Of a DNA stretch of 64,000 bases, positions 5,231 through 63,982 are shown one piece after another. Position 1 is the stretch's first letter. Each line of letters begins with the position of its first letter. A program made the translations under genes and the position numbers. The notes beneath the pieces were generated by a model, which saw nothing but the letters and a program-made list of their open reading frames with translations, searched no databases and was not told where the DNA came from. The DNA comes from Candidatus Omnitrophota bacterium. Its GTDB lineage: Bacteria; Omnitrophota; Gorgyraeia; Gygaellales; Profunditerraquicolaceae. Location: positions 64,318 to 128,317 of the forward strand of contig JBAZLM010000001.1 in assembly GCA_041650295.1 (NCBI GenBank), given 5' to 3'.

Positions 5231-6802
5231 TTATTTTTTAATTTTCTTTCCCTTAACTTTATAGTACTCTTGCAAACATTTCACTTTTAACTTTTTCTTT
5301 AATAAAACTTCAATTCCGCTTACCGTAGCTTGTGCACCAAAAATTGTTGTAGTATAAGGTATGGCGTTTAAAATAACCTGAGAACGTATCTTTACTTCAT
5401 CTAAATGTGGAATTCTTCCCGAAGGAGTATTAATCACCAACTGTATCTTGCCGGCTTTCATTAAATCCAAAACATTAGGGCTGCCTTCTGAAATTTTCGG
5501 TAAAACCTTAGAAGCAACTTTACTTTTTGCCAACACCATTGCAGTTCCGCTGGAGGCATAAATTTTAAAACCTAAATCCTTAAACTTTTTAGCAATTAAA
5601 ATAATATTACGCTTATCTCGATCGTTAACTGAAATAAATACATTGCCTCTTTTAGGTAATTTTTGACCAGCGGCCAACTGACTCTTAATATAAGCCTGAC
5701 CAAAATCAGCATCGATACCCATAACTTCACCGGTTGATTTCATCTCCGGACCTAAAATAATATCTACTCCCGGGAAACGATTAAAAGGAAAAACTGATTC
5801 TTTAATCGCCACATGCTTAGGAATAATTTCTTTAATAAATTTTAAATCTTTTAATTTTTTTCCTAACATCGCTTTGGTCGCTAAATTGACCAAAGGAACT
5901 CCAATAACTTTAGAAACAAACGGCACTGTGCGCGAAGCACGCGGATTAACTTCTAAAATATAAACTTTTCCGTCTTTAACGGCATATTGTACATTCATTA
6001 AACCCACTACATGTAATTCTTTAGCCATATGCACCGTTGCCTGACGAATTTTATTAAGTATCTCCTCTGATAATGTGTAAGTGGGCAAAGACATCGCCGC
6101 ATCTCCAGAGTGCACTCCGGCCTGCTCAATGTGTTCCATAATCCCGCCAATAATAAAATCTTTTCCATCACCCACTAAATCTACATCTACCTCAATGGCA
6201 TCCTCTAAAAATTTATCTACCAAAACAGGATGGTCACCGGAAACTGCCGCCGCTTCTTTAATAAATTTTTCCAAAACCTGTTCATCGTAAGCAATCTCCA
6301 TGGCTCGACCACCTAAAACATAGGAAGGACGCACCAAAACCGGATAGCCAATACGATTTGCTACTTCTTTAGCTTGTTCAAAATTAAATGCCGTTCCATT
6401 AACTGGTTGTAGAAGTCCTAACTTATCCAACATTAATTTAAAACGCTTACGGTCTTCGGCGATATCAATACTATCTGCGCTAGTTCCCAAAACCCGTACC
6501 CCTGCTTTAAGCAAAGGTACTGCTAAATTAAGCGGAGTTTGGCCGCCAAATTGCACAATTACTCCTAACGGTTTTTCTCTTTCAATAATATTTATGATAT
6601 CTTCAAAAGTTAACGGTTCAAAATACAATTTATCTGAAGTATCATAATCAGTAGAAACGGTCTCCGGGTTACAGTTAACCATAATGCTCTCTATTCCTTC
6701 TTCCCGCAAGGCATATGCAGCGTGGCAACAACAGTAATCAAACTCAATTCCTTGCCCGATTCTATTGGGTCCACCTCCTAAAATAATGACTTTTTTCTTC
6801 AT
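5231..6802 (-). CDS. carB: carbamoyl-phosphate synthase large-subunit homologue, half-size (C-terminal ATP-grasp carbamoyl-phosphate domain plus MGS-like allosteric domain only)
   Basis: 523 aa beginning KKVIILGGGPNRIGQGIEFDYCCCHA (second-half signature FDYCC) and ending with an MGS-like domain; about half the canonical ~1070 aa. Confidence 0.8.
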   Translation of the reverse strand: MKKKVIILGGGPNRIGQGIEFDYCCCHAAYALREEGIESIMVNCNPETVSTDYDTSDKLYFEPLTFEDIINIIEREKPLGVIVQFGGQTPLNLAVPLLKAGVRVLGTSADSIDIAEDRKRFKLMLDKLGLLQPVNGTAFNFEQAKEVANRIGYPVLVRPSYVLGGRAMEIAYDEQVLEKFIKEAAAVSGDHPVLVDKFLEDAIEVDVDLVGDGKDFIIGGIMEHIEQAGVHSGDAAMSLPTYTLSEEILNKIRQATVHMAKELHVVGLMNVQYAVKDGKVYILEVNPRASRTVPFVSKVIGVPLVNLATKAMLGKKLKDLKFIKEIIPKHVAIKESVFPFNRFPGVDIILGPEMKSTGEVMGIDADFGQAYIKSQLAAGQKLPKRGNVFISVNDRDKRNIILIAKKFKDLGFKIYASSGTAMVLAKSKVASKVLPKISEGSPNVLDLMKAGKIQLVINTPSGRIPHLDEVKIRSQVILNAIPYTTTIFGAQATVSGIEVLLKKKLKVKCLQEYYKVKGKKIKK

Positions 6803-6870
6803 TTTACTCCACTTTTTAGCTTTATTTGACTACTTTATGGGTTAATTGCTCCATTTCCCTATTTTTGCTT

Positions 6871-6969
6871 ATTTTGCCCCTGACAGGAATTGAGCACTCA
6901 CCTTATCTAGCGAAACACTGTCGAGCGCAGCGAGACAGTGTCGAACCTTCGATTTCCTGTCACTTATTT
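6871..6969. repeat. tRNA-Arg-associated insertion: 23-nt direct duplicate of the tRNA-Arg 3' end plus trailer, a ~51-nt hairpin insert (TGAGCAC...CGAAA-stem-GAGCGCAGCGA-stem) and an inverted copy of the T-arm
   Basis: cttattttgcccctgacaggaat occurs at 6868-6890 and 6963-6985; between them is the hairpin CACTGTC-GAGCGCAGCGA-GACAGTG; same insert family as 60687-60860. Confidence 0.6.
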
Positions 6970-7041
6970 TGCCCCTGACAGGAATCGAACCTGTACCACC
7001 AGCTTCGGAGGCTGATGCGCTATCCGTTGCGCTACAGGGGC
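6970..7041 (-). tRNA. tRNA-Arg (anticodon CCG)
   Basis: Reverse complement folds as a cloverleaf: acceptor GCCCCTG/CAGGGGC, anticodon loop CTCCGAA, T-loop TTCGATT; no encoded CCA. Confidence 0.8.
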
Positions 7042-7048
7042 ATAAAAA

Positions 7049-8395
7049 TTATTTAACCTGATATACAATTTTTCCATTAAAGATTGTATATTCAACTAAC
7101 CCTTTTACGGTTTTACCAATAAACGGTGAATTGTGAGATTTAGAAAGAATTTTCTTCTTTTCTATCACAAATTCCCTGTGCGCATCGATAATAATTATAT
7201 CTGCGTCAGCATCAACGCCTAAAGTACCTTTATTAATTCCTAAAATCCTGGCTGGATTTAAGGCTAATTTCTCAACCAACTCTGACCAACTTAATATATT
7301 TTTATCAATTAGCTCCATGACACTCACAGATAACCCTGACTCTAGTCCAATTTTTCCAAACTCCGCGCGATCAAACTCAATCTCCTTTTCATTCTCTGTA
7401 TGTGGAGCATGGTCTGAGGCAATTACATCTATAATCTTATTTTTTAATCCATCTTTTATCGCCGCTAAATCTTTTTTAGTGCGCAGAGGTGGATTAATTT
7501 TCATATTTGTATCATAATCGATTATATCATCTTCAGTTAAAGCAAAATAATGCGGAGCAGTTTCACAGGTCACTTTAATTTCTTTTTGTTTAGCCGCAGC
7601 AATAATCTCTATGGATTCCTGGCAGCTTACGTGGGCAATATGCACCGCTGACCCAGACTTTTGCCCCAAATCAATATCACGCGCTACTCGCTTATATTCT
7701 GATTCATTGGATATCCCACGTAAACCCAAGCGCGTAGAATTAAACCCTAAATTAATTACGCCTTTTTGTGTTAATTTTTTATCTTCACAATGGCAAATGG
7801 TTAAAACCCCCGCTCCTTTGGCATCTTTTAAAGCTTGCAACATAATACTATCGTTATCTACAGAAGCTCCATCATCGGAAATAGCCAAAGCGCCAGCTTG
7901 TTTTAATGCCGCAATATCATTTAATTGGTTTCCTAGACGATCTTTAGTAATTGCTCCACAAACTAACACATTAACTTTAGCATCATTTTTAATTATTTTT
8001 TGTAACAGAGCGATACTTTCTGGACAATCCATCGCCGGTTGAGTGTTGGGCATGGCTAACACAGTAGTCACGCCACCTTTAGCAGCAGCCGCTGTGGCAC
8101 TAGCTACGGTTTCTTTGTCTTCTCTTCCAGGTTCGCGCAAATGCACATGCATATCAACAATTCCCGGGGCGACAATTTTATTTTCCGCATTAATTACAGT
8201 GGCATCGCTAGATATAATATTTTTAGCCACTTTAGAAATTTTATTACCTTCAATTAAAATATCTAAAACTGCGTCAATTTTATTTGCCGGATCAATTACG
8301 CGACCACCTTTTATCAAAATACTTGCCCCGTTAGAAATAGGTTGTCGCTGACAACCGCTGGGCATCTCTTCTATTTTATTTCTAATGGGGCTCAT
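7049..8395 (-). CDS. pyrC: dihydroorotase
   Basis: 448 aa; VDMHVHLREPG metal-binding motif; follows pyrB. Confidence 0.85.
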   Translation of the reverse strand: MSPIRNKIEEMPSGCQRQPISNGASILIKGGRVIDPANKIDAVLDILIEGNKISKVAKNIISSDATVINAENKIVAPGIVDMHVHLREPGREDKETVASATAAAAKGGVTTVLAMPNTQPAMDCPESIALLQKIIKNDAKVNVLVCGAITKDRLGNQLNDIAALKQAGALAISDDGASVDNDSIMLQALKDAKGAGVLTICHCEDKKLTQKGVINLGFNSTRLGLRGISNESEYKRVARDIDLGQKSGSAVHIAHVSCQESIEIIAAAKQKEIKVTCETAPHYFALTEDDIIDYDTNMKINPPLRTKKDLAAIKDGLKNKIIDVIASDHAPHTENEKEIEFDRAEFGKIGLESGLSVSVMELIDKNILSWSELVEKLALNPARILGINKGTLGVDADADIIIIDAHREFVIEKKKILSKSHNSPFIGKTVKGLVEYTIFNGKIVYQVK

Positions 8396-10730: not shown

Positions 10731-12569
10731 TTATTCTACAGTTACAGACTTAGCTAAATTACGCGGCTGATCCACATCACACCCGCGTTTTACCGCAATA
10801 TGATATGCTAATAATTGTAAAGGTAATACTACTAACAAAGGTGAAAACATCTCTTCGATTTTAGGAACATAAATCACTTCATTGGTTAACTCTTTAATCT
10901 CTTTATCCCCGTCGGTAGCAATAGCAATAATTTTGCCTTTACGCGAGCGAATTTCTTGAATATTAGAGATCATTTTTTCATATACTTTCGATAATGGAGC
11001 AATACAAACTACTGCTCGATACTCATCAATTAACGCAATCGGCCCGTGTTTCATCTCGCCGGCAGCATAACCTTCTGCCGGAATATAAGAAATTTCTTTT
11101 AATTTTAATGCTCCTTCTAAAGCCGAAGGATAATTAACATTCCTACCCAAATATAAAAACGATCCTAAATGCGAATGTTTACGCGCAAGCGTAGCAATAC
11201 TTTTTTGTAACTTTAAAATTTCAATCTGATGCTCTGGCACTTTACGCAACTCTTCAATTAATTTTTTAATTTTGGTCGCAGAAACCGTACCTTTAATTTG
11301 AGCTAGATATAATGCAAATAAATAAAGCGCGGTTAACTGCGCAGTATAAGCTTTAGTCGAAGCCACGCCAATTTCCGGTCCAGCATGCGTATAAATTATA
11401 CCATCGCTTTCTCTGGTCAGCGTCGAGCCTAAGACATTGCACACTGATAACACCATCGACCCTAATCGCTTGGCTTCTCTAATTCCCGCCAACGTATCGG
11501 CAGTCTCGCCAGATTGGCTAATCGCAATGACTAAAGTCTCTGGACCAATTAAAAGATCGCGATAACGAAACTCACTAGAGACATCGATTTGCGTAGCCAC
11601 CCCACAAATAGACTCAAGGGTATACTTAGCTACCATTCCAGCATGATAAGCCGTACCACAAGCCACAATAAATATTTTTTGTATTTCTTTTAATTTTTCT
11701 TCGGCAATATTTTGCTCTTCAAAAAATATCTTTCCAGTTTCTTTGTGAATACGGGAATAAATTAAATTTTTTAAAATTTGCGGTTGCTCATTAATTTCTT
11801 TGAGCATAAAATGATCATATCCACCTTTTTCTGCCTGGGCAATATCCCAATTAATGTGCACGATGTCTTTAAAAACGGTTTTGCCATCTAGGTTGCTAAC
11901 TTTATAATTATCTTTATCTAATACGACAATTTCATTTTCATCTAGAAAAATAACTTCTTTGGTAAATCCTAAAATTGCAGGAACATCGGAGGCTAAAAAG
12001 TTTTCACCCTTGCCCACTCCAACGATCAATGGGCTGCCAAAACGCGCACCAATTAATTTATTCGGTTCTTTAGCAGAAATAACTCCAATGGCAAAAGAAC
12101 CAATTAATAATTTTAAAGCCTTAGCCACCGCTTCTTCTAAAGATACATTTACATAAAACTTTTCAATTAAGTGCACAATAACTTCGGTATCAGTTTGACT
12201 GACAAAGGTGTGGCCGTCTTTAATTAATTGTAGTTTAAGTGCTTCAAAATTTTCAATAATTCCGTTATGCACGACGGCAATTTGCCCTGAGCAATCTGGA
12301 TGAGGATGGGCATTAGCCTGCGTAGGCGCACCGTGAGTCGCCCAACGCGTATGGGCAATGCCGACTACACCGCTTAACGGTTTACTTTTAACTAATTTTT
12401 CTAATGCACTAATTTTTCCGGGAGATTTACGAATGCCAACACTACTTTTTTTAGGAAGGATTAACGCGATACCACTGGAATCATAGCCGCGATATTCTAG
12501 GCGTTTTAAACCCGCCAATAAAATTGGCTGAGCTTCTTTTTCGCCGATATATCCGACTATGCCGCACAT
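10731..12569 (-). CDS. glmS: glutamine--fructose-6-phosphate aminotransferase
   Basis: 612 aa; MCGIVGY N-terminal nucleophile; two SIS domains; ends ..VTVE. Confidence 0.95.
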   Translation of the reverse strand: MCGIVGYIGEKEAQPILLAGLKRLEYRGYDSSGIALILPKKSSVGIRKSPGKISALEKLVKSKPLSGVVGIAHTRWATHGAPTQANAHPHPDCSGQIAVVHNGIIENFEALKLQLIKDGHTFVSQTDTEVIVHLIEKFYVNVSLEEAVAKALKLLIGSFAIGVISAKEPNKLIGARFGSPLIVGVGKGENFLASDVPAILGFTKEVIFLDENEIVVLDKDNYKVSNLDGKTVFKDIVHINWDIAQAEKGGYDHFMLKEINEQPQILKNLIYSRIHKETGKIFFEEQNIAEEKLKEIQKIFIVACGTAYHAGMVAKYTLESICGVATQIDVSSEFRYRDLLIGPETLVIAISQSGETADTLAGIREAKRLGSMVLSVCNVLGSTLTRESDGIIYTHAGPEIGVASTKAYTAQLTALYLFALYLAQIKGTVSATKIKKLIEELRKVPEHQIEILKLQKSIATLARKHSHLGSFLYLGRNVNYPSALEGALKLKEISYIPAEGYAAGEMKHGPIALIDEYRAVVCIAPLSKVYEKMISNIQEIRSRKGKIIAIATDGDKEIKELTNEVIYVPKIEEMFSPLLVVLPLQLLAYHIAVKRGCDVDQPRNLAKSVTVE

Positions 12570-12588
12570 GTATACACCTTAAATTTAA

Positions 12589-12663
12589 TGACCCTAACGG
12601 GATTTGAACCCGTGTCGAGAGCTTGAAAAGCTCTTGTCCTAGACCAGGCTAGACGATAGGGTC
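12589..12663 (-). tRNA. tRNA-Glu (anticodon TTC)
   Basis: Reverse complement gives GACCCTATCGTCTAGCCTGGTCTAGGAC...GGGTTCAAATCCCGTTAGGGTCA; anticodon loop TTTTCAA; squeezed between gyrA stop and glmS start. Confidence 0.85.
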
Positions 12664-38187: not shown

Positions 38188-38372
38188 TAAATGAAACGTT
38201 CTTTTAGATATCCCTGCGGTGCACGTTGGAAAACTGATAATTGTTGAACCAACACAATTTTCAAGGGTACCTATAATTTTTTAGGCACGTGTGTCTAAGA
38301 ATAGGGTGCCCACCTGAAACCAAATCGGTTCAGAATATCGTTCCAACGGCACATTTGCGGGGATTTTTTTTA
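38188..38372 (+). ncRNA. candidate ~185-nt structured ncRNA (6S-like long closing stem ending in a U-tract), or a leader attenuator for the downstream gene
   Basis: CCCUGCGGUGCACGUUGG (38212-38229) is complementary to CCAACGGCACAUUUGCGGGG (38344-38363), which is followed directly by T8 (38364-38371). A consensus promoter lies upstream; no ORF in the interval. Confidence 0.3.
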
Positions 38373-54956: not shown

Positions 54957-55121
54957 ATAAAGCCAGATCTTACTACTTAAGTATACACGTTTTTAGTATT
55001 GATTTTCAAGGGGGTAGAATTAATAATTTTTGAAAACGTTTTCTTTTTGCCGTATTTTCCTCTTGAATTTGCCTTACCTATATAGCATACTTACTTTACT
55101 ATGAGCCCGGTAGGCATAAAT

Positions 55122-58100
55122 ATGAAAAACTCTAAACTTAGAAAAATTTTATCTTTATTTCTGTGTGGACTGCTATTGCTTCAGCAGACCGGCTTTGCTC
55201 AGGTGGCCAGCGTCGAGCTAAACTTATCTAGTCGGTTTGCTTCCGCAGGCAGTGCTTTATCCAATATACTATCTGTAGATAAGTTCCGTCCAGTTCATCT
55301 AAGATCTATCTCCTACGATCAACTCAACAATAACTTTAAGCTTTTAATTGATAAAGGGGATACTAAGAATCCCAAAACTCAAGAGATCGAATCTACTACC
55401 AAAGACCTGCTCAACTACTTCTTTGTGGGTATTGCTCTACCCAATAGCTCCTTCTGGGTAAACCTTAGACCTGATGCTCCGACTAACATTATTGATCCAC
55501 TACTGGCTCAAACCGAAGTCGGTAAGATTCTCCTAGAAGCCGACCTGCAACTTAAAAAAGACACCGCTGAAGCCACTAACCCGCAATCCCCAGCAGGCAA
55601 AGCCTACTGGAATAAGCTCTATGCTAAAGCCAATGAACTCTACGGTAACCAGAACGTCAACATCCCCACACTAACTAGACCTTGGATAGTTCCTGATGAG
55701 ATCATTATCCGTGAATCTACCAACAATGCCTATGTCTACAAAGCTACTCTAAAGGTCATGTTAGAACAAGATTATCTTAAAGATAACTCTACCTACTCTT
55801 TTAAAGATGACCGCGCTAAACAACTCAATGAATACTCATCTCAGATTATCAGACAAGAGATCATCCCTAAACTCACTAAAGAGATTAACTCCGCTAAACG
55901 TTATGCCCAACTGCGTCAGGTATACTACTCATTAATCCTAGCCCAATGGTTTAAAGCCAGAAACCTCAACAACCCTAATAATCCTTATGCTAAACAAATC
56001 GACCGTAAAGATCTAACCAACCTTAAAACTAATACTCCTTACTCCGTAGACACTTACTTTAACTCTTATAAACAAAACTTTACCCAAGGCCAATACAACA
56101 TCAAAGAACCCGTCTATACACCCTATGGACAGGTGGTCAGGAGTTATTTTAGTGGAGGCGTGGTATTTGGTGAACCAATAACTAAAGCTATACAAAAGGA
56201 TATTGTTCCAGGATATAGATTAGATATGAATCAATCTTATTTAACAAGTGTAGAAGGTGATTTAGTGCATGTGATGGCAGAAGGAGTAAGTAGGCAGAGA
56301 GCTTATTCTAAAACTGATAGCAATAGCTCTCTTAAAGATCTTGAATATACATATGGTGTAAAAATAAATGTTCTTACTACCAGTGAATTTGATCAAAAAG
56401 CCAGTCAATTGGGGATCAGTAATCCCGGTAAGGGATTTGGTTATTTTGATCGCTCAGCTGACCAGCCGTATGTTTATATTCTTAAAGGCAATGAGAATAA
56501 CCGCGATTTAGTTATGCACGAAATTACTGAAGCTTTAGCCAGACAGAGCCAAGGCGTAGCGACTGCTGGAGCAGAAACGGGAGGAATTTCGGGAAATGGA
56601 ATAGATCCAATAGTTAATAAATTGATTGCGCAAGAAGTGGCTAGCAAGCTGGCGGAATTATCTGTAAAAACTGGATTAAATATTTCAGAGAAGATAAAAA
56701 ATAGTAATGAGCTAGTTAAGTGGATGGAAGCTTTACAAGAATATCCTTTATTGGCAGATAAAATTACTGCGCATATTATTGTTACTTTAAGAATGTTACA
56801 TAATAGTAATAATCCTCAAGATGCCATAAATTTTTGGGGAGATTCTAGAGAAATGTGGAAAGTTAGGGAGGCGCTGGTTCCGCTTTTACAGAGCCAAATT
56901 CCAATGTTGTGGAAACAATTATTAGTGAAATTTTTACCGTTGGTAAGCTATGATCAGTTGTTGCGCATACGCGATCTATCTAGAGAATTACAGGATAATA
57001 TGCAACCGCCAACCTATGCATCCGATGATGATATTAATTACATGTCTACTATTGTTAGACCTACAGGCGACTACATTGCCGCTAGAATAAGAGATACAAT
57101 TCATCGCAATCCTAGTAATAAAATAAATTTAATTTTATTACAAGCTTATAAGGTTTATTTAAATGAAGGGCTTGATGCGTATAGGGAATATTTGAAAAAT
57201 AATCCGCAAACGCAAATATTACCTGCTAATAATATTTTGGATGATCGATTAAATTTTGAAAAAAAAGCTAAAGCATTAGAAAAATGCGATGCCTTAATAT
57301 CTCTGGTAGGAGATCTGACTGGTAAGGCCTCTGGAGAAATAATCATGCAAAGCCGTTTTGAGACTTGGAAGAAAGCGGTGTCTGGGCATAGTGATTTTGG
57401 AATAAAAATTTCTAATTTAATTAATGCAAATCCTGATAATCCTACTGATACTTTAGAGTATTTAGGAGAGATTGTCGCAATGAGAAAAGATCTCCAAAGA
57501 ATGTTTATTGATCTTACTGGCGAAGCGTTGTTTGTAAGCTATTTGTTAGACAATGCTTTAGAGACTCTATATTATGTTAATTGCGACAAAATTTTTGAAG
57601 ACAAAAGTGTTAATTCTTTAATATTAATGAGGAGTCTTTTGGAAAATACCAGTTTAAACGGGTATTCTCAGCAAGAAAGTGCAACAATCTTAGAAAAATT
57701 AAAAGAATGGAGCCAGACAACATCTCTAAAAATTAGTAACAAAAAATCTTTAACTGAAAATGATTGGAGTGAGCTTGTTAAAATATATTTAGATGTAAAA
57801 AATAAAATTATTAATGCAAATACAAATTTAATTATTGATAATTTTTATGAGGAAGCTGCAAAATTAATGGGCATTACTAATGCCGAAGATGTTTCCGCAG
57901 ATATTTTAAGAAATGACACCATTTCTTTGTTATCGCGAGCTTTAAGTGAAGCTCTGGTAAAAGCTGGAATTACGCAAGTCATATATGCTGGAGAAGGGGC
58001 AGGCAAAGTAAGGGTTTTTGATAACCTGGACTTTTTAGAGAAAAATCCCCCAACAGATAACGATATTGTTATTCTTAAATTTGATTTAACTGAAGAACAA

Positions 58101-60530
58101 ATTAGTAGAAATATTACTTCAGCTGTTTCAGCGGTGGTTTTTTCTAAAACCGGGCCAATTTCACATTTGGCTCTTTGGGTAAAGGGTAAACGTATCCCTT
58201 CGGCAATTTGTTCCACTGTTTCGCAATTTGAACAATTTCAAGGTCAGAAGGTTAAATTTATAATTAATGATGACCAAGTAGTTTTAGAACCAACTAAAGA
58301 TTTAGTGGAAGGTTCTGTAAAGCCAGCCAAAGAAATTAAAAAAATAGTGTTGCCTAGGGCAAAGAATAAATTAGAGCATATTATTTACGCTGATCAGTTT
58401 GCAGCTGATAATGCGGGGAATAAGGCAGCGGGATTGAAAAAAATTCCGGCGGAATTTTTATTACCGAGCTTTGTAGTAAGTAGTAGTTTTTATGATGCAG
58501 TATTAAATGATCCGCTTAATGCTGATATTGCAGTTGAACTATCAGATTATTTGCAAAAAGCAATTCGTAATCCATTAGCTAATGATATATCGGATACTTT
58601 AGATAAAGCGAGGCGTTTGATTAATCAATTAGTGATTTCAGATGCTAAAGCAGCGGAAATTTTAGGGGCGATTGAAAAAACAATGGGTCAAAATAAGGAT
58701 TTAAGTTTGGTTGTCAGGTCTTCAACTAACGCTGAAGACCTGCCCGGTTATGTGGGAGCTGGACTTTATGGTTCTTTTAAAAATGTGCGCCCGGATCAGG
58801 AATCGTTAGCTGAAAATATTAAAAAAGTTTGGGCTAGTGTCTGGAATGAGCTCCCCTTTAGGGATCGTCAAGTTGAAGGGATTGATCATTTGGCGGTTTA
58901 TCCGGCTGTACTTATCCAGCAGATGTATCCTTCGGATTACCACGCAACGATTTATACTCAGGATCCGGCAAATAAAGGAAAATTAGTTATTCAATTAAAG
59001 CAGGGGCTTGGCGAGCCTGATGAATATAATGATAAGAATATTCAGCAGTTTTCGGGTATGCCGTATCTTTTTATTTATGACGCTGATTCTCATGAATTAA
59101 GTGTAAAAAGCTATGCTGATATTAATTATAAGTTAATTTTAAGAGATGGTGTTATTCAGGAAGTTTTAGCAGACTATAATAATGATCCTATTGGCGATAA
59201 AAATGGAAGAGAGCTTTTAAAACAACTTGCTCAGGTGGCATTAGATATCGCTGCAAAAGCAAAAACTCCTCAAGATATTGAAGGAGGAATTAGGAATGTA
59301 AGTGGGGTTTGGGAATTTAAGCTATTTCAGTCCAGAGATCAAGCTAATGCATCTGATATAGCCAAGACATCTGCACAGGTTGATAGTAATACAATTATTG
59401 CTGGAGAAATTGGTTCGCTTGCTAATGAAATTGCAGGTTTGTTTCGAAAAGAACTTAAAAAAGGATTAAGTGATAGAAATTTTGATGCCATTATTAGTAA
59501 ATATGGCGGGGTGTTCGTAGGTGAAGGTAGATCTGGCAAGGCTTATAAATTTTCTACTACTACCGGAGAGATGGTAATTAAATTTTTTGTTGATGTTGGT
59601 CCCGTTGAATATACCACGTTTGAATCTGAGGTACGGGGTTTATCGCGGGCAGACAACCCATTATTTCAACAGTATGTAACTAGTGCTAGAGCTAATGATG
59701 ATAAAGTAAGCTATATTGTGACAAAATTTGTGAGCGGAATAAGCTTTGATTCTGAGTATAGTTATTCGGAATGGCAGGAATTAAGCCCAGCTGCACAAGA
59801 AAAATATTTTGATAAAATAGAACAAAGAATCCAAAGTATTCCGGATGAGCATTGGGATCAACTGGTTTTAATTTTTAAATATGCAAAAGAAGAGGGAATT
59901 ATTATTGATGCAAAAAAATCCGATAATTTTAAATATACCCCGGAAAGAGGGTTCGTTGTTTTGGATTATGTGTCTTTGATAAATAAAGAGATGTCTGCTA
60001 ATCTTCTTGAAGAAGCAGCTCCTTTGATTGTTGGTGGGGGCTTAATGGCTCAAATAGGAGATGAGAACATTGCTTTGGTTAAGAGCAAGATAGGCGAGGC
60101 GAAAAAACGAATTAGAAATAATTCAGTGGTAATTGTAGATGAAAATGATACAAAAAAAGGTGGTATTGATTTTCGTTTCTTACCGATTGTTACGCAGTCC
60201 ATGGGTAGTTTAAAAGCGAGCATGAGAGGGATACCCGTAAATACTTTGCAACAAATTAATTTAACTAGAGAGTGGAGTGATATTAATCGTTTAGTTAGTT
60301 CTGGGATTGCTCCTTCCACAGAGCGTTTAAAAGAATACTTTGCCGCTAGTTGTTTTAAAGGAAATCTAGATACAGATAATCAAAAGATAATTGCCTGCAT
60401 TTCGGATATTTTAAGAATGGAAGAGCTAACTTGTTCGACTACCGATGCCACCCTTAAAGATATTTTAGTAGTCTTAGGTTCCGGTAGAAGTGGGGAGGAT
60501 TTAAAGTTAGCGCTGAGTGGGGTTAATTAA
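55122..60530 (+). CDS. giant exported multidomain protein: Sec signal peptide, ~950-aa unknown N-terminal region, PEP-utilizer phosphohistidine swivel domain, PPDK_N-type ATP-grasp nucleotide-binding domain, protein-kinase-like domain, C-terminal tail
   Basis: Signal peptide MKNSKLRKILSLFLCGLLLLQQTGFA-QV; the listed ORF starts 7 codons earlier. Swivel domain: GEGAGKVRVF...NDIVILKFDLTEE...SKTGPISHLALWVKGKRIPSAICST, His codon near 58164. PPDK_N: NKAAGLKKIP...LVVRSSTNAEDLPGYVGAGLYGSF...VWASVWNE...AVLIQQMYPSDYHATIYTQDP. Kinase-like: G-loop VGEGRSGKAYKF, MVIKFF lysine, IIIDAKKSDNF catalytic loop, VLDY. Confidence 0.7.
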   Translation: MKNSKLRKILSLFLCGLLLLQQTGFAQVASVELNLSSRFASAGSALSNILSVDKFRPVHLRSISYDQLNNNFKLLIDKGDTKNPKTQEIESTTKDLLNYFFVGIALPNSSFWVNLRPDAPTNIIDPLLAQTEVGKILLEADLQLKKDTAEATNPQSPAGKAYWNKLYAKANELYGNQNVNIPTLTRPWIVPDEIIIRESTNNAYVYKATLKVMLEQDYLKDNSTYSFKDDRAKQLNEYSSQIIRQEIIPKLTKEINSAKRYAQLRQVYYSLILAQWFKARNLNNPNNPYAKQIDRKDLTNLKTNTPYSVDTYFNSYKQNFTQGQYNIKEPVYTPYGQVVRSYFSGGVVFGEPITKAIQKDIVPGYRLDMNQSYLTSVEGDLVHVMAEGVSRQRAYSKTDSNSSLKDLEYTYGVKINVLTTSEFDQKASQLGISNPGKGFGYFDRSADQPYVYILKGNENNRDLVMHEITEALARQSQGVATAGAETGGISGNGIDPIVNKLIAQEVASKLAELSVKTGLNISEKIKNSNELVKWMEALQEYPLLADKITAHIIVTLRMLHNSNNPQDAINFWGDSREMWKVREALVPLLQSQIPMLWKQLLVKFLPLVSYDQLLRIRDLSRELQDNMQPPTYASDDDINYMSTIVRPTGDYIAARIRDTIHRNPSNKINLILLQAYKVYLNEGLDAYREYLKNNPQTQILPANNILDDRLNFEKKAKALEKCDALISLVGDLTGKASGEIIMQSRFETWKKAVSGHSDFGIKISNLINANPDNPTDTLEYLGEIVAMRKDLQRMFIDLTGEALFVSYLLDNALETLYYVNCDKIFEDKSVNSLILMRSLLENTSLNGYSQQESATILEKLKEWSQTTSLKISNKKSLTENDWSELVKIYLDVKNKIINANTNLIIDNFYEEAAKLMGITNAEDVSADILRNDTISLLSRALSEALVKAGITQVIYAGEGAGKVRVFDNLDFLEKNPPTDNDIVILKFDLTEEQISRNITSAVSAVVFSKTGPISHLALWVKGKRIPSAICSTVSQFEQFQGQKVKFIINDDQVVLEPTKDLVEGSVKPAKEIKKIVLPRAKNKLEHIIYADQFAADNAGNKAAGLKKIPAEFLLPSFVVSSSFYDAVLNDPLNADIAVELSDYLQKAIRNPLANDISDTLDKARRLINQLVISDAKAAEILGAIEKTMGQNKDLSLVVRSSTNAEDLPGYVGAGLYGSFKNVRPDQESLAENIKKVWASVWNELPFRDRQVEGIDHLAVYPAVLIQQMYPSDYHATIYTQDPANKGKLVIQLKQGLGEPDEYNDKNIQQFSGMPYLFIYDADSHELSVKSYADINYKLILRDGVIQEVLADYNNDPIGDKNGRELLKQLAQVALDIAAKAKTPQDIEGGIRNVSGVWEFKLFQSRDQANASDIAKTSAQVDSNTIIAGEIGSLANEIAGLFRKELKKGLSDRNFDAIISKYGGVFVGEGRSGKAYKFSTTTGEMVIKFFVDVGPVEYTTFESEVRGLSRADNPLFQQYVTSARANDDKVSYIVTKFVSGISFDSEYSYSEWQELSPAAQEKYFDKIEQRIQSIPDEHWDQLVLIFKYAKEEGIIIDAKKSDNFKYTPERGFVVLDYVSLINKEMSANLLEEAAPLIVGGGLMAQIGDENIALVKSKIGEAKKRIRNNSVVIVDENDTKKGGIDFRFLPIVTQSMGSLKASMRGIPVNTLQQINLTREWSDINRLVSSGIAPSTERLKEYFAASCFKGNLDTDNQKIIACISDILRMEELTCSTTDATLKDILVVLGSGRSGEDLKLALSGVN

Positions 60531-60670
60531 ATTTAGTAACTGCTATCTTGCTTGCCAGTAAAACCAAACATTATTGCGATAAAAGGTGATTTTATTTTTA
60601 TAAATCATTCTTTACAGTCGTGTATAAAGCGGCTATAATTAATTCCGCTTTATATTTATAGGTCAGTTAT

Positions 60671-60766
60671 TGCCCTGTGGTCTAATTTGAGCACCTTGGT
60701 TTTAAATTTGGCGAAATCCTGCGAGCGCAGCGAAGCAGGAGGTAGGACTAAAGCTATTTAAATTAC
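60671..60766 (+). repeat. repeat unit R1: tRNA-Gln 5' 17 nt + ~54-nt hairpin insert (loop GAGCGCAGCGA) + GGTAGGAC
   Basis: TGCCCTGTGGTCTAAT identical to the tRNA-Gln 5' end, then TTGAGCACCTTGG...GGCGAAATCC-CCTGC-GAGCGCAGCGAA-GCAGG-AGGTAGGAC; same insert family as at 6891-6941. Confidence 0.6.
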
Positions 60767-60860
60767 TGCCCTGTGGTCTAATTTGAGCACCTTGGTTTTA
60801 AATTCGGCGAAATCCCGCCGGTTTTTAGGCGGGAGGTAGGACTAAAATTATTTAAGCTAT
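60767..60860 (+). repeat. repeat unit R2: second copy with a sequence-divergent but structurally equivalent hairpin
   Basis: Identical to R1 for the first ~47 nt, hairpin replaced by CCCGCC-GGTTTTTA-GGCGGG, then GGAGGTAGGACTAAA. Confidence 0.6.
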
Positions 60861-60934
60861 TGCCCTGTGGTCTAATGGTAGGACACAAGAATCTGGATCT
60901 TGTTATCATGGTTCGAGTCCATGCGGGGCAACCA
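60861..60934 (+). tRNA. tRNA-Gln (anticodon CTG) with encoded CCA
   Basis: TGCCCTGTGGTCTAATGGTAGGACACAAGAATCTGGATCTTGTTATCATGGTTCGAGTCCATGCGGGGCAACCA; U1-A72 pair typical of bacterial tRNA-Gln; anticodon loop ATCTGGA. Confidence 0.8.
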
Positions 60935-61250: not shown

Positions 61251-62888
61251 TTAAAGGTTAGTTTCTTGGGTAAGAGTTCGCCAGGATTCTATTTGTTTAG
61301 TCCAATCAAATTCTCTGGCTATTAGGTTGGCTTTGTATTCTGGCACTGCATTAAGGATTTCATTAGATCCCATGAGAATCTCTTCTTGGATTTTCGGAGA
61401 GAGGAATAGAAGTTCTACTATAAGATGCAATTGGATGGCAGACATATTGAGCCACTGCGCCACTTGTTTAATATTTGTGGCTTTGCCATTATCTAGTAGC
61501 TCTTGTGCTTGGTAGGCAAGGATTAACCGCTGGCGTAATTTTGGTTCATTTTTAATTTCAATTTTAGGATCATGTGTAGTGATATGCCGGACTTCTTTTA
61601 AATCTGTACTGTATTCCTGAGCTGTACCGTCAGAGAATGTAATAAATATTTTTTTAGCCACTGTATCATAATCAATCTGCTTAATTAAGTTTACTAGGAA
61701 TGATTTTTGTTCTTGAGAGGTGAAGCTTTGCCAATTTTCCTTTAATTTAGCGCCTTCTGGATGATTGAACAAGCATTCTGCTACGGCTTTTTCGATTTCA
61801 AGAGCGTTTATTGTTTTAGTGTTGCAGGTGTGATAACCGTATTTCTGTGCATGGATACAAACATAGTACCTATATTTGGTCTGTTGCGCTTTGTAAGTGT
61901 AAGTTGCAATCATTGGCCTATTACAGGCCTTACAGAAGAGGAGTTTAGTTAGTATATTTATAACTTTTTTCCCGCGAACCAATTCTTGATAATTTCGATT
62001 CTTTTTTAAAAGTTCCTGAACGCGTTTATATGAATCTTCATCAATGATTGCTTCTTGTTCGCCTTCATAAATTGCTCCATTATAAGAAACTTTTCCAATA
62101 TAAAGTGTGCTATGTAGAATATGGTTGATGGTTGTATTCTGGAAGGCATTACCATCGGCTTTCTTGCCATCTTTAGTAGTATAGGATTTGCTTCGCAAGC
62201 CTTTTTCCGTGAGCGCTTGGGCAACATGTTTTAGAGAATAGCCCTTTAGGTATAAGTCATAAATAGTTTTTATGGTTTCAGCTTCTGTTGGGTTTATTGT
62301 TAGTTTTTTTGTTCCTTTGATGCAATTGTAACCTAAAGGTGGCCTTCCACCAAGCCATTTTCCTCTCTTTCTAGCCGCGCCCATTTTATCTTTTGTTCTT
62401 TCGGAGATAATCTCGCGTTCAAATTGAGCAAAAGATAGTAAAATGTTTAATGTTAACCGGCCCATAGAGGAGTTAGTATTGAATGCTTGAGTTACAGATA
62501 CAAAGGTAACGTTATGCTTATCAAAAAGCTCAAGAAGATGAGTGAAGTCGACTAGGGACCGGGAGAGTCGGTCAACTTTATACACTACAACGCAGTTGAT
62601 TTTACCGGTTTTGATATCTTCAATTAGTTTTTTCAGCGCCGGTCGTTCGGTATTTGATCCAGTATATCCCCCATCGTCATAAAGGTCATCTAATGCAACC
62701 CACCCTTCATTCTTTTGGCTTTTTATGTAGTTGATGCCGGATTCTCTTTGTGCATCAAGCGTGGTAAATTCTTGCTCTAAGCCTTCAGTGGTAGACTTTC
62801 GCGTGTAAATAGCGCAGTAGATTGTTTGTTTCTCTTGCCCAGTAGCACTGTCCATAATTTCCTTACATTCTAAAGAATAGATAGCCAT
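61251..62888 (-). CDS. large serine recombinase (resolvase/invertase N-terminal catalytic domain + recombinase and zinc-ribbon domains)
   Basis: 545 aa; catalytic region YTRKSTTEGLEQEFTTLDAQRE (Ser nucleophile), VYKVDRLSRS motif, C-terminal Cys cluster. Confidence 0.85.
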   Translation of the reverse strand: MAIYSLECKEIMDSATGQEKQTIYCAIYTRKSTTEGLEQEFTTLDAQRESGINYIKSQKNEGWVALDDLYDDGGYTGSNTERPALKKLIEDIKTGKINCVVVYKVDRLSRSLVDFTHLLELFDKHNVTFVSVTQAFNTNSSMGRLTLNILLSFAQFEREIISERTKDKMGAARKRGKWLGGRPPLGYNCIKGTKKLTINPTEAETIKTIYDLYLKGYSLKHVAQALTEKGLRSKSYTTKDGKKADGNAFQNTTINHILHSTLYIGKVSYNGAIYEGEQEAIIDEDSYKRVQELLKKNRNYQELVRGKKVINILTKLLFCKACNRPMIATYTYKAQQTKYRYYVCIHAQKYGYHTCNTKTINALEIEKAVAECLFNHPEGAKLKENWQSFTSQEQKSFLVNLIKQIDYDTVAKKIFITFSDGTAQEYSTDLKEVRHITTHDPKIEIKNEPKLRQRLILAYQAQELLDNGKATNIKQVAQWLNMSAIQLHLIVELLFLSPKIQEEILMGSNEILNAVPEYKANLIAREFDWTKQIESWRTLTQETNL

Positions 62889-63330
62889 TCCAATGTTGTC
62901 CTGTTATAGCGCAGGCTACATTAGAAAGGGATTTGTAGATATTGCCATTATATTCAAAGCCATTTTCAAGCACCTTAACTTGAATTTCTTTACCTTTGTA
63001 ATTTTTAGTAATAATGCTACCAGGAATCGGAAGACGACGATCCTTCAACTGTGAAACATTGCTAGTTATTGGTTTAATATTATTCGGCCTAAGCAATAGA
63101 TTATTAATAGGGTCATATTTCTGAATAAGCTCTTTAATTTTGTTTTGAGTTTCAGCGGAAATGCCCCCGGATTCCAATTCCTGAAGCCGATAGGCAAGCT
63201 TACGCCAGAGAAATACCTTATTATTCGAAGGAACTTTCTGGCCCGGGAATAACTCTTCGTATTTTGTCTCAAGCTCACTTAGGGTTTTTTTCTTAAGTTC
63301 TACTATTTGAGATAAATTGGTTTCAGCCAT
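62863..63330 (-). CDS. DUF2924-family protein co-transcribed with the serine recombinase
   Basis: LWRKLAYRLQELESGGIS motif characteristic of DUF2924; 26-nt overlap with the recombinase start; listed ORF extends 10 codons upstream of the probable MAETNLS start. Confidence 0.5.
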   Translation of the reverse strand: MAETNLSQIVELKKKTLSELETKYEELFPGQKVPSNNKVFLWRKLAYRLQELESGGISAETQNKIKELIQKYDPINNLLLRPNNIKPITSNVSQLKDRRLPIPGSIITKNYKGKEIQVKVLENGFEYNGNIYKSLSNVACAITGQHWNGYLFFRM

Positions 63331-63588
63331 AATTGGTCTCCTTTTTTCAGTGGTGAGCAAGGCTGTAAAGGCAGTTGCGTCGAACCACTTTCGTTAGTAC
63401 GTATATGCCATACAGTTCGAGAGATAGCAAGTTATATAATAGATATTATTTTCGATTATTTAACCCCCAAGGCGTATTATCATTAGCAAGTTAGTATATT
63501 TTGCCACACCTGTTTATAGGGAGTGTTTCTATAGCGGGTTCCTTCTGGGCGTTTCTAGAATAATACCTCTTGTTTCGCTAGAATTTCA

Positions 63589-63638
63589 TTGACAACCTTT
63601 TTTTGTATGTTATAATTTACAATATCCGAATATTGTAA
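63589..63638 (+). promoter_or_regulatory. consensus promoter plus palindromic operator upstream of the ArsR-family gene
   Basis: TTGACA (63589-63594) - 16 nt - TATAAT (63611-63616); perfect inverted repeat TTACAATAT-ccga-ATATTGTAA at 63617-63638. Confidence 0.5.
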
Positions 63639-63652
63639 AATAAGGAAATAAA

Positions 63653-63982
63653 ATGCAAGAACTTGCCTATAAAATAAAAGCCGATTTCTTAAAAGCTCTA
63701 TCCCATCCTGTGCGTCTTCAAATAATTGAACTTCTTAAGGATGGCGAAAGAAACGTGGGCAGTATTATGAAAACTTTAAGTATACAACAATCAAGCCTTT
63801 CGCGACATCTTACAGTTTTAAGAGAAGCGGGGATATTAAAGTCAAGACAACAAGGTACGGTTATCTACTATGATATTGAAGATCATATTATCTTTCATGT
63901 ATTGCGTCCTATAGCTGAGATGTTGCGTAAGAAGCTTAAGAAGACTGAATCGGTATTAAGTAGTCTGGGTAAAGAAAAATAA
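63653..63982 (+). CDS. ArsR/SmtB-family transcriptional regulator
   Basis: 109 aa; HPVRLQIIELLKDGERNVGSI winged-helix motif. Confidence 0.8.
   Translation: MQELAYKIKADFLKALSHPVRLQIIELLKDGERNVGSIMKTLSIQQSSLSRHLTVLREAGILKSRQQGTVIYYDIEDHIIFHVLRPIAEMLRKKLKKTESVLSSLGKEK

Follow-up and report, generated by a model that had tools for sequence, protein, structure and literature searches.

The window analysed here is a 64,000-nucleotide stretch of a Candidatus Omnitrophota contig (JBAZLM010000001.1). Near its beginning lies an intact tRNA-Arg(CCG) gene accompanied by a partial copy of its own 3' end, and this copy is split by a 51-nt insert (6890-6940), a member of a modular family of non-coding repeats that is dispersed in Omnitrophota. 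From the intact gene outwards, the locus is composed as follows (coordinates are those of the window).

6969-7042, minus strand: intact tRNA-Arg(CCG) without encoded CCA (ARAGORN; Rfam tRNA model, 71.4 bits)
6963-6985, minus strand: proximal copy of a 23-nt direct repeat, covering tRNA positions ~58-73, the discriminator and a 6-nt trailer (AATAAG)
6948-6962, minus strand: inverted copy of an uninterrupted T-loop, 3' T-stem and acceptor start (direct reading)
6941-6947, minus strand: 5' side of an interrupted T-arm copy, GGTTCGA on the minus strand, matching tRNA positions 52-58
6916-6940, plus strand: hairpin module with arms CACTGTC and GACAGTG and the interior GA-GC-GCA-GC-GA (fold, model pairs and family covariation)
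6890-6915, plus strand: box module TTGAGCACTCACCTTATCTAGCGAAA (covariance model match 6890-6940, 47.6 bits, E 6.5e-10)
6868-6890, minus strand: distal copy of the 23-nt repeat, covering the 3' side of the interrupted T-arm copy, the tRNA 3' end and the trailer

The first-pass annotation of this DNA had pointed out a perfect 23-nt direct repeat, CTTATTTTGCCCCTGACAGGAAT, at 6868-6890 and 6963-6985, and these coordinates proved exact; the spacing is 95 nt, and the match extends to 26 nt with one mismatch. Because tRNA-Arg(CCG) spans 6969-7042 on the minus strand, the repeat takes in 17 nt at the end of the tRNA (ATTCCTGTCAGGGGCAA) and a 6-nt trailer, a minor correction to the 8 nt of trailer first assumed. 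Since the copy contains this locus-specific trailer, the duplication arose in place. The distal repeat copy runs unbroken into ancestral carB-upstream sequence, and the T-loop of the partial T-arm copy to which it belongs is split, as had been recognized, by the 51-nt insert TTGAGCAC-TCACCTTATCTAG-CGAAA-CACTGTC-GAGCGCAGCGA-GACAGTG, whose boundary is ambiguous by 1 nt (base A58/T6890 may belong to the flank or to the insert). The tRNA sequence indeed resumes directly 3' of the insert with TCGAACC (6941-6947), the reverse complement of GGTTCGA, and is followed by the inverted copy TTCGATTTCCTGTCA (6948-6962), which reads TGACAGGAAATCGAA on the minus strand. Along the tRNA strand, the order is tRNA-Arg, the trailer AATAAG, TGACAGGAAATCGAA, GGTTCGA, the hairpin CACTGTC-TCGCTGCGCTC-GACAGTG, TTTCGCTAGATAAGGTGAGTGCTCAA, TTCCTGTCAGGGGCAA and a second AATAAG, where TTTCGCTAGATAAGGTGAGTGCTCAA is the opposite strand of the box and carries a Shine-Dalgarno (SD)-like AAGGTG. 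The 15-nt inverted segment is complementary to an uninterrupted T-loop plus acceptor, so that it either predates the unit or arose independently. It looks like a fold-back signature and pairs with GGTTCGA...TTCCTGTCA as a palindrome, suggesting fold-back synthesis during a break-repair or template-switch event. The duplication and the insertion may have happened together or separately. A scan of 6700-7200 revealed no terminator-like site, the tail of the Arg copy being TTTCGC. The copy is probably without tRNA function and at most provides a hairpin 3' of tRNA-Arg.

Similar units had been noticed next to tRNA-Gln at 60.7 kb, and this relationship was well supported. The motif TGAGCAC-N8-30-CGAAA matched three times in the 64-kb window against 0.11 matches expected, and none of 100 shuffles reached three. 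The 11-mer GAGCGCAGCGA, which had been named as a further shared feature, is indeed exact at 6923 and 60723, but with up to one mismatch it matched three times against 0.52 expected and is thus weak evidence for kinship on its own. A covariance model (R1) trained on 46 copies, of which 43 came from other genomes and three from the window itself, recovered exactly three copies in the window with 47-55 bits (E ~1e-9 to 1e-11), the next match having E >7. All three are located inside tRNA fragments. The tRNA-Gln region contains the following features.

60611-60639, plus strand: promoter-like site TTTACA-17-TATAAT (11/12 match), upstream of the repeat units and tRNA-Gln
60671-60748, plus strand: unit 1, composed of tRNA-Gln positions 1-16, box and hairpin (60687-60740, loop GAGCGCAGCGA) and GGTAGGAC (model 55.3 bits)
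60767-60842, plus strand: unit 2, composed of tRNA-Gln positions 1-16, box and hairpin (60783-60834, arms TCCCGCC and GGCGGGA) and GGTAGGAC (model 47 bits)
60861-60934, plus strand: intact tRNA-Gln(CTG)

Upstream of tRNA-Gln there are thus two tandem units of ~95 nt, each ending in an 18-nt leader, with the box TTGAGCACCTTGGTTTTAAATT(T/C)GGCGAAA and the hairpins TCCTGC-GAGCGCAGCGAA-GCAGGA or TCCCGCC-GGTTTTTAG-GCGGGA. As tRNA positions 1-16 and GGTAGGAC, the remainder of the D arm, flank box and hairpin, the units lie in the D-loop of a 5' tRNA fragment. Members of one hairpin family therefore interrupt loop parts of truncated tRNA copies at either locus, in antisense orientation at tRNA-Arg and in sense orientation at tRNA-Gln, in accordance with the initial description. 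Because a good promoter precedes them, the Gln units are probably part of the tRNA-Gln leader transcript; the same promoter arrangement was found at L102 (L-numbers denote loci fetched from metagenomes or genomes). The tRNA-Gln copies of the window, L102, L097, L034 and L086 share a locus-specific CTTGG variant, and the tRNA fragment flanking the unit decays progressively across these genomes, indicating that the tRNA-Gln insertion is old and inherited. A further segment, TTTCGCTAGAATTTCA (63573-63620, plus strand), resembles the start of the opposite strand of the box and may be a decayed copy of it; it was not scored by the covariance model and lies directly 5' of the TTGACA-N17-TATAAT promoter of an ArsR-family gene (63653-63982).

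The unit consists of a box of 29-38 nt (TTGAGCACC, an A/T-rich spacer and GCGAAA) and an immediately adjoining hairpin. A perfect arm of at least 6 bp starts no more than 2 nt after GCGAAA in 91 of 111 copies (82%), compared to 9.4% at random positions. There are 39 different arms among the copies, and hairpin length ranges widely, from 15 to 122 nt, because extra hairpins nest in the loop. When 83 copies were aligned, 93% of cells were paired, compared to 39-53% in slid-partner controls, and both sides had changed in 134 cells, compared to 44.5 ± 4.8 in shuffles, although fitting this alignment to the model somewhat favours structure. The hairpin sequence is thus free to vary while pairing is kept by compensatory changes. 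The interior motif GA...GA occurs in 27 of 87 hairpins and TC...TC in none, which makes the TTGAGCAC strand the distinct one. That TTGAGCACCTT and GCGAAATCC are invariant in the metagenome loci is a product of the search pattern; the box ends do vary in the Arg copy and in secondary array copies (TAGAGCACC, GTGGGCACC, TGACACC and GCGAAACAC). A tRNA-like fold of the unit was rejected for want of consistent pairing, and so was a sigma-70 promoter inside the box, given that spacing and hexamers were unfit and that real consensus promoters adjoin the box. Direct box-hairpin-box-hairpin arrays are frequent, and mosaics with other hairpin repeats occur as well. The other families in such mosaics are AACTTAC...GTAAGTT, ATAAGTTCGGAC...ATAAGTTATGTCGC and TTCGCAGAC...CTGCTCATTTAA(A)ATG, the last of which likewise ends right at start codons; examples are found at L084 (1860-2830), L106 (3750-4100), L046, L048 and L117, and in L084 these families fill every spacer of the rpsH-rplF-rplR stretch.

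Beyond the window, a looser search pattern matched at least 119 metagenome stretches, about 110 of them convincing and the remainder chance matches in G+C-rich coding DNA, and the covariance model yielded 83 matches in 517 kb. In species-representative genomes, a strict pattern returned two true relatives, L005 (Omnitrophota) and L002 (labelled Patescibacteria), while the G+C-rich genome matches L003 and L004 were discarded as chance because they lacked the hairpin. The Patescibacteria label is probably wrong, since the named relatives of the L002 ABC transporter (70-73% identity) are nearly all from Omnitrophota. Judged by their neighbours, both genome matches belong to Omnitrophota, and cross-phylum transfer was rejected. 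The L002/L017 contig, annotated as 'Patescibacteria group bacterium', carries the repeat upstream of rpmA. A phage origin was discarded after two viral-contig scans gave nothing or a chance match in G+C-rich coding sequence, and a CRISPR-like array because the supposed spacers are hairpins common to several genomes. No Rfam family overlapped the units at the gathering threshold or at E up to 10, the only matches being tRNAs, 6S RNA and an FMN riboswitch. Hammerhead-like and other ribozymes, a T-box, a PyrR site and a terminator were accordingly rejected, the core also being unlike a hammerhead by eye. As no paper on the family was found by sequence or by topic, it is apparently undescribed. 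A second subfamily with a 38-nt box (TTGAGCACCTTAATATATTAAGATCTGATGCGAAATCC) was detected in L008, L009, L011, L012, L022, L030, L033, L051 and others, and also in L072, L082, L114 and L115. Its flanks are conserved on both sides (...TTTTGAATCGG..CGCGCCTT and GGGGCCCTCGAACCTGATC..TTTTGAGA), and it looks like a larger structured repeat that is not in Rfam.

Comparison with related genomes showed that the Arg insertion is derived. In L127, L129 and L130 (PyrC 78-80% identical), tRNA-Arg(CCG) directly joins the conserved carB-upstream motif, with neither unit nor duplication, and the inverted segment 6948-6962 is absent from relatives, too. The closest relatives (L126, L131/132 and L133; 83-85% identical) have lost tRNA-Arg altogether, indicating that the spot is prone to rearrangement. 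Their pyrC-carB interval corresponds to 3770-3860 in L126, 2778-2958 in L131 and 1530-1608 in L133, and L131 carries a different hairpin repeat there, twice (GTTGTCATCCCCG...CGGGGATGAC). The gene after pyrC, an MJ0043_C family member of ~412 aa in L127 and L129, spans 826 aa in L128 (3777-6257), with a faint intein match.

A second presence/absence pair was found in front of glmS. The tRNA-Glu-glmS spacer of the window (12560-12590, minus strand) comprises 18 nt (TAAATTTAAGGTGTATAC) with its own SD and no repeat, while L020, L079 and L092 have hairpin and box at this site and L020 keeps the old SD upstream of the hairpin. Alignment of the copies, which had been suggested in order to define termini and target-site duplications, revealed exact ends in the tRNA-embedded copies (Val, Gln, Ser in L019, Phe in L035, and Arg), which run from TTGAGCAC to the final base of the hairpin. 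They lack terminal inverted repeats, and the target is not duplicated beyond an ambiguity of 0-1 nt. For instance, L057 harbours the unit in a whole tRNA-Val copy (GGGTTC|TTGAGCAC...GGCGGGA|AAATCC), and the junctions at L110 read GGTGGTTT|hairpin...GCTCAA|AAATCC. The left flanks of the copies are A/T-rich but not fixed.

The unit is enriched near tRNA genes, 16 of 90 copies lying within 200 nt of one compared to about 2% expected (34 tRNAs in 798 kb). Six independent events placed it inside a tRNA, namely in the T-loops of Val, Met and Arg and in the D-loops of Gln, Phe and Ser, and each of these copies adjoins an intact gene for the same tRNA. By a rough arithmetic estimate, six of six in D- or T-loops has P ~1e-4 if positions are random within a 75-nt tRNA. 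These loops are the A/T-rich, single-strand-prone parts of tRNA genes. A related module at L071 is fused to a tRNA-Met fragment, with the junction at the anticodon loop. The idea that the unit generally inserts into hairpin loops was rejected, as 4 of 89 junctions were located in such loops versus ~7% in controls; the tRNA preference is therefore no general taste for hairpin loops. Survivorship must contribute to the pattern, since an insertion into the only gene for a tRNA would not persist. About 85% of the ~110 copies lie outside tRNAs, in ordinary intergenic spacers. Of the original proposal, an unnoticed mobile element that targets tRNA loops, the first part has stood up in that the family is apparently undescribed, recurrent and insertion-like; with most copies intergenic and no enrichment in hairpin loops, however, tRNA loops are not the element's defining target.

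In the intergenic spacers, orientation is strongly biased. Relative to the TTGAGCAC orientation, the flanking genes are (-,-) in 45 cases and (+,+) in 12, so that the usual order is gene, hairpin, ATTTCGC..., A-rich stretch, ...CTTAAGGTGCTCAA, gene. Thirteen copies, which precede about eight different genes (among them glmS, an SNF transporter and response-regulator-like genes), have a start codon -1 to +3 nt from ...GCTCAA. This places AGGTG 5-6 nt upstream of the start codon, at normal SD spacing, and the hairpin followed by AAGGTGCTCAA abutting the start codon often appears to form a ready-made ribosome-binding site. In some other copies, a consensus TTGACA-N17-TATAAT promoter begins 8-10 nt after the box, and L084 has the unit in its rpsH-rplF and rplF-rplR spacers. 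Judged from these arrangements, the family has clearly been co-opted as a putative hairpin and ribosome-binding cassette in many places.

A candidate enzyme had been suggested near tRNA-Gln, where the open reading frame (ORF) 61251-62888 encodes a large serine recombinase (545 aa) with Resolvase, Recombinase and Zn_ribbon_recom domains and a DUF2924 partner. The two genes span 61251-63360 on the minus strand, convergent to tRNA-Gln. This candidate was rejected as partner enzyme for lack of co-occurrence: homologues convergent to tRNA-Gln were found in L034 (49% identity) and L086 only, and none near ~100 other copy loci or at L102, a tRNA-Gln locus that has the element. We interpret the recombinase as the integrase of a separate island at tRNA-Gln, probably an integrated element that uses the tRNA-Gln 3' flank and whose far end lies beyond the window.

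The unit is a small hairpin repeat akin to REP (repetitive extragenic palindromic) and BOX elements that falls outside the definitions of the REP, MITE (miniature inverted-repeat transposable element) and IS200 types. Like REP sequences and their mosaics (BIMEs, bacterial interspersed mosaic elements; REPINs), which are moved by the Y1 HUH transposase RAYT (REP-associated tyrosine transposase), it is short, intergenic and non-coding, with an imperfect hairpin (in 82% of copies, and covarying; REP palindromes measure 20-40 nt) and conserved sequence 5' of it. It likewise lacks terminal inverted repeats and target duplication, forms mosaic arrays and may affect mRNA ends. In contrast to REP, its conserved part is a box of ~30 nt ending in GCGAAA instead of a GTAG-type 5' foot, the hairpin sequence is unconserved (39 different arms), arrays are mostly direct instead of inverted pairs, and the unit is mainly found upstream of genes, donating an SD. 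An approximate IS200 query and ORF clustering turned up no RAYT gene, which REPs typically flank, in the ~860 kb of loci that were fetched. The modular build with tandem variable modules (boxA/B/C-like), the intergenic location and a putative effect on downstream gene expression recall BOX of Streptococcus pneumoniae and Correia elements (NEMIS) of Neisseria, which differ in sequence and phylum; Correia elements also have terminal inverted repeats and a TA duplication, and neither type is known from tRNA loops. The absence of terminal inverted repeats and target-site duplication separates the unit from MITEs. Exact ends without inverted repeats or duplication, a hairpin near one end and strand asymmetry are shared with IS200/IS605-type elements and the derived PATEs (palindrome-associated transposable elements), from which the unit differs in having one hairpin, no conserved left tetranucleotide and no TnpA/TnpB partner in sight. 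Archaeal mobile bulge-helix-bulge introns (56/57, 58/59 and D-loop) also place one family in the D- and T-loops of several tRNAs, but here the host is bacterial, the interrupted copies are truncated or decaying beside an intact gene, and the unit is mostly found outside tRNAs. Rickettsia palindromic elements and mitochondrial GC-clusters are likewise hairpin-forming selfish repeats that can land in RNA genes, yet theirs are longer palindromes in genes that stay functional.

Taken together, the box-hairpin unit has inserted into a redundant copy of the tRNA-Arg 3' end and belongs to a dispersed family, and we consider it somewhat more probable than not that this family is moved in trans; the mechanism of mobilisation is inferred, hairpin-dependent mobilisation in trans being favoured. 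An enzyme supplied in trans would recognize the box and the folded hairpin on one strand and move the unit as DNA, possibly by a REP/RAYT-like or IS200/IS605-like single-strand chemistry, which would explain exact ends without duplication. The A/T-rich, single-stranded loop DNA of tRNA genes may be a favoured or at least a tolerated target, and every tRNA-internal copy would lie beside an intact tRNA because only hits in dispensable duplicates survive. Several observations weigh against this explanation. Simple insertion accounts neither for the 15-nt inverted T-arm segment nor for the supply of partial tRNA duplicates at several loci. ORF clustering of the fetched loci revealed no recurrent transposase-like ORF near the copies, and an approximate IS200 TnpA query, a weak test, gave no match in ~860 kb. 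Unlike in IS200/IS605, no fixed tetra- or pentanucleotide target precedes the unit, left flanks ending in AAT, TTC, TTT, GAA, AAAA, CGAA or CATA; nor do junctions outside tRNAs fall into hairpin loops. Nearest-neighbour folding energies hardly differ between the two strands, single sequences fold only marginally better than shuffles (z -1.7 to -2.2), and in the metagenome loci the conservation of both box ends was imposed by the search. Finally, copies at orthologous sites (tRNA-Gln leader, glmS and SNF transporter) could mean selection for function.

According to an alternative that we regard as unlikely, the unit is a conserved cis-acting RNA module and not mobile. Between cistrons, its hairpin would serve as a stabiliser or terminator, accompanied by an A/U-rich leader and an SD, and in the other orientation, as in the tRNA-Gln leader, the unit would give rise to a small RNA whose CACCUU box can pair with the SD of box-bearing mRNAs; the similarity of copies would result from selection and local duplication. 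The orientation bias relative to genes, the junctions of ...AAGGTGCTCAA with the start codons of about eight different genes, the copies in both ribosomal protein gene spacers of L084, hairpin covariation, and the tRNA-Gln leader orthologues in five genomes with their CTTGG signature downstream of a good promoter all fit such a module. It is harder to reconcile with copies in tRNA pseudo-copies without a plausible regulatory role, including the Arg copy 90 nt from carB, which also has no consensus terminator, with presence and absence at orthologous sites and the relic SD in L020, and with ends that are exact whatever the context. Function and mobility are compatible, so that this may represent exaptation rather than a true rival.

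Dispersal without a dedicated enzyme appeared rather improbable to us. Here, template switching or fold-back break repair at hairpin-forming DNA would have spread the unit and made the Arg structure, with the repeat copied in as filler and the tRNA part re-copied, as tRNA genes and repeats both form stable hairpins. Such a process would account for the 6 nt of locus-specific trailer in the duplication, which arose in situ, for the near-perfect palindrome of inverted T-arm segment and interrupted copy, for the L071 junction, which is also an inverted repeat (GCTCAT...ATGAGC), and for a rearrangement-prone locus whose three closest relatives are without tRNA-Arg. However, identical ends in all independent copies (TTGAGCAC to hairpin end) are unexpected for microhomology-driven copying, and the insertions at L057 and L110 are clean, with no inverted filler.

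Mobilisation of the unit in trans could also be extended to a wider claim, which we regard as speculative and give a similarly low likelihood. The family would then represent a new class of minimal bacterial mobile DNA that is moved on single-stranded DNA by an Omnitrophota enzyme and prefers the loops of cloverleaf-folded tRNA genes, with integration coupled to a re-copying of the tRNA that preserves the intact gene. At the same time, it would serve as a portable translation-initiation cassette and, through the plus-orientation copy on the tRNA-Gln transcript, as an anti-SD small RNA against all box-bearing mRNAs.

A direct repeat from the T-loop past the tRNA 3' end is the classic layout of tRNA-integrating elements. 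The 23-nt repeat, which has this layout, might thus be read as the attL/attR (attachment site) scar of a decayed island integrated at the tRNA-Arg T-loop, with the hairpin as a remnant of the island's end, and partial 3' tRNA copies are present at L110 and L071 as well. We consider this quite improbable: an att scar would bracket an island with its integrase, but only 72 nt of non-coding DNA lie between the repeats, with neither an integrase nor other island genes. The large serine recombinase nearby is part of the separate tRNA-Gln island. In addition, GGTTCGA on the far side places the unit inside the duplicated T-arm and not beside it, and the unit occurs ~100 times in non-tRNA settings and also in D-loops and whole tRNA copies. 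That the similarity of the Arg and Gln inserts is due to chance, for which the weak significance of the 11-mer alone might be cited, is refuted by the combined motif (3 vs 0.11 expected), the model (E ~1e-9) and more than 100 relatives elsewhere.

Several other features of the window were recorded. At ~20000, GC skew flips from ~-0.2 to +0.2, with the cumulative skew minimum near 20 kb, and the gene strand flips as well, which is consistent with a replication origin. A 6S RNA is encoded at 38208-38367 (plus strand, 68.5 bits). A 1809-aa ORF at 55101-60530 (plus strand) has a PEP/pyruvate-binding-type C-terminal region; a protein-database search with its C-terminal 699 aa returned almost no close relatives, the best being 40% identical over half of the query.

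That spare tRNA copies are captured time and again at D- and T-loops is unusual among bacteria, and the junctions define the ends of the element precisely. At gene starts, many unrelated genes receive their SD from one repeat. Annotation of tRNAs and gene starts can be confused by the family, which may also mark Omnitrophota contigs for binning. Omnitrophota are uncultured and their non-coding DNA is essentially unexplored. A repeat that occurs across this phylum, with its fixed 30-nt box, freely varying hairpins and exact ends, provides a handle on a DNA-handling activity.

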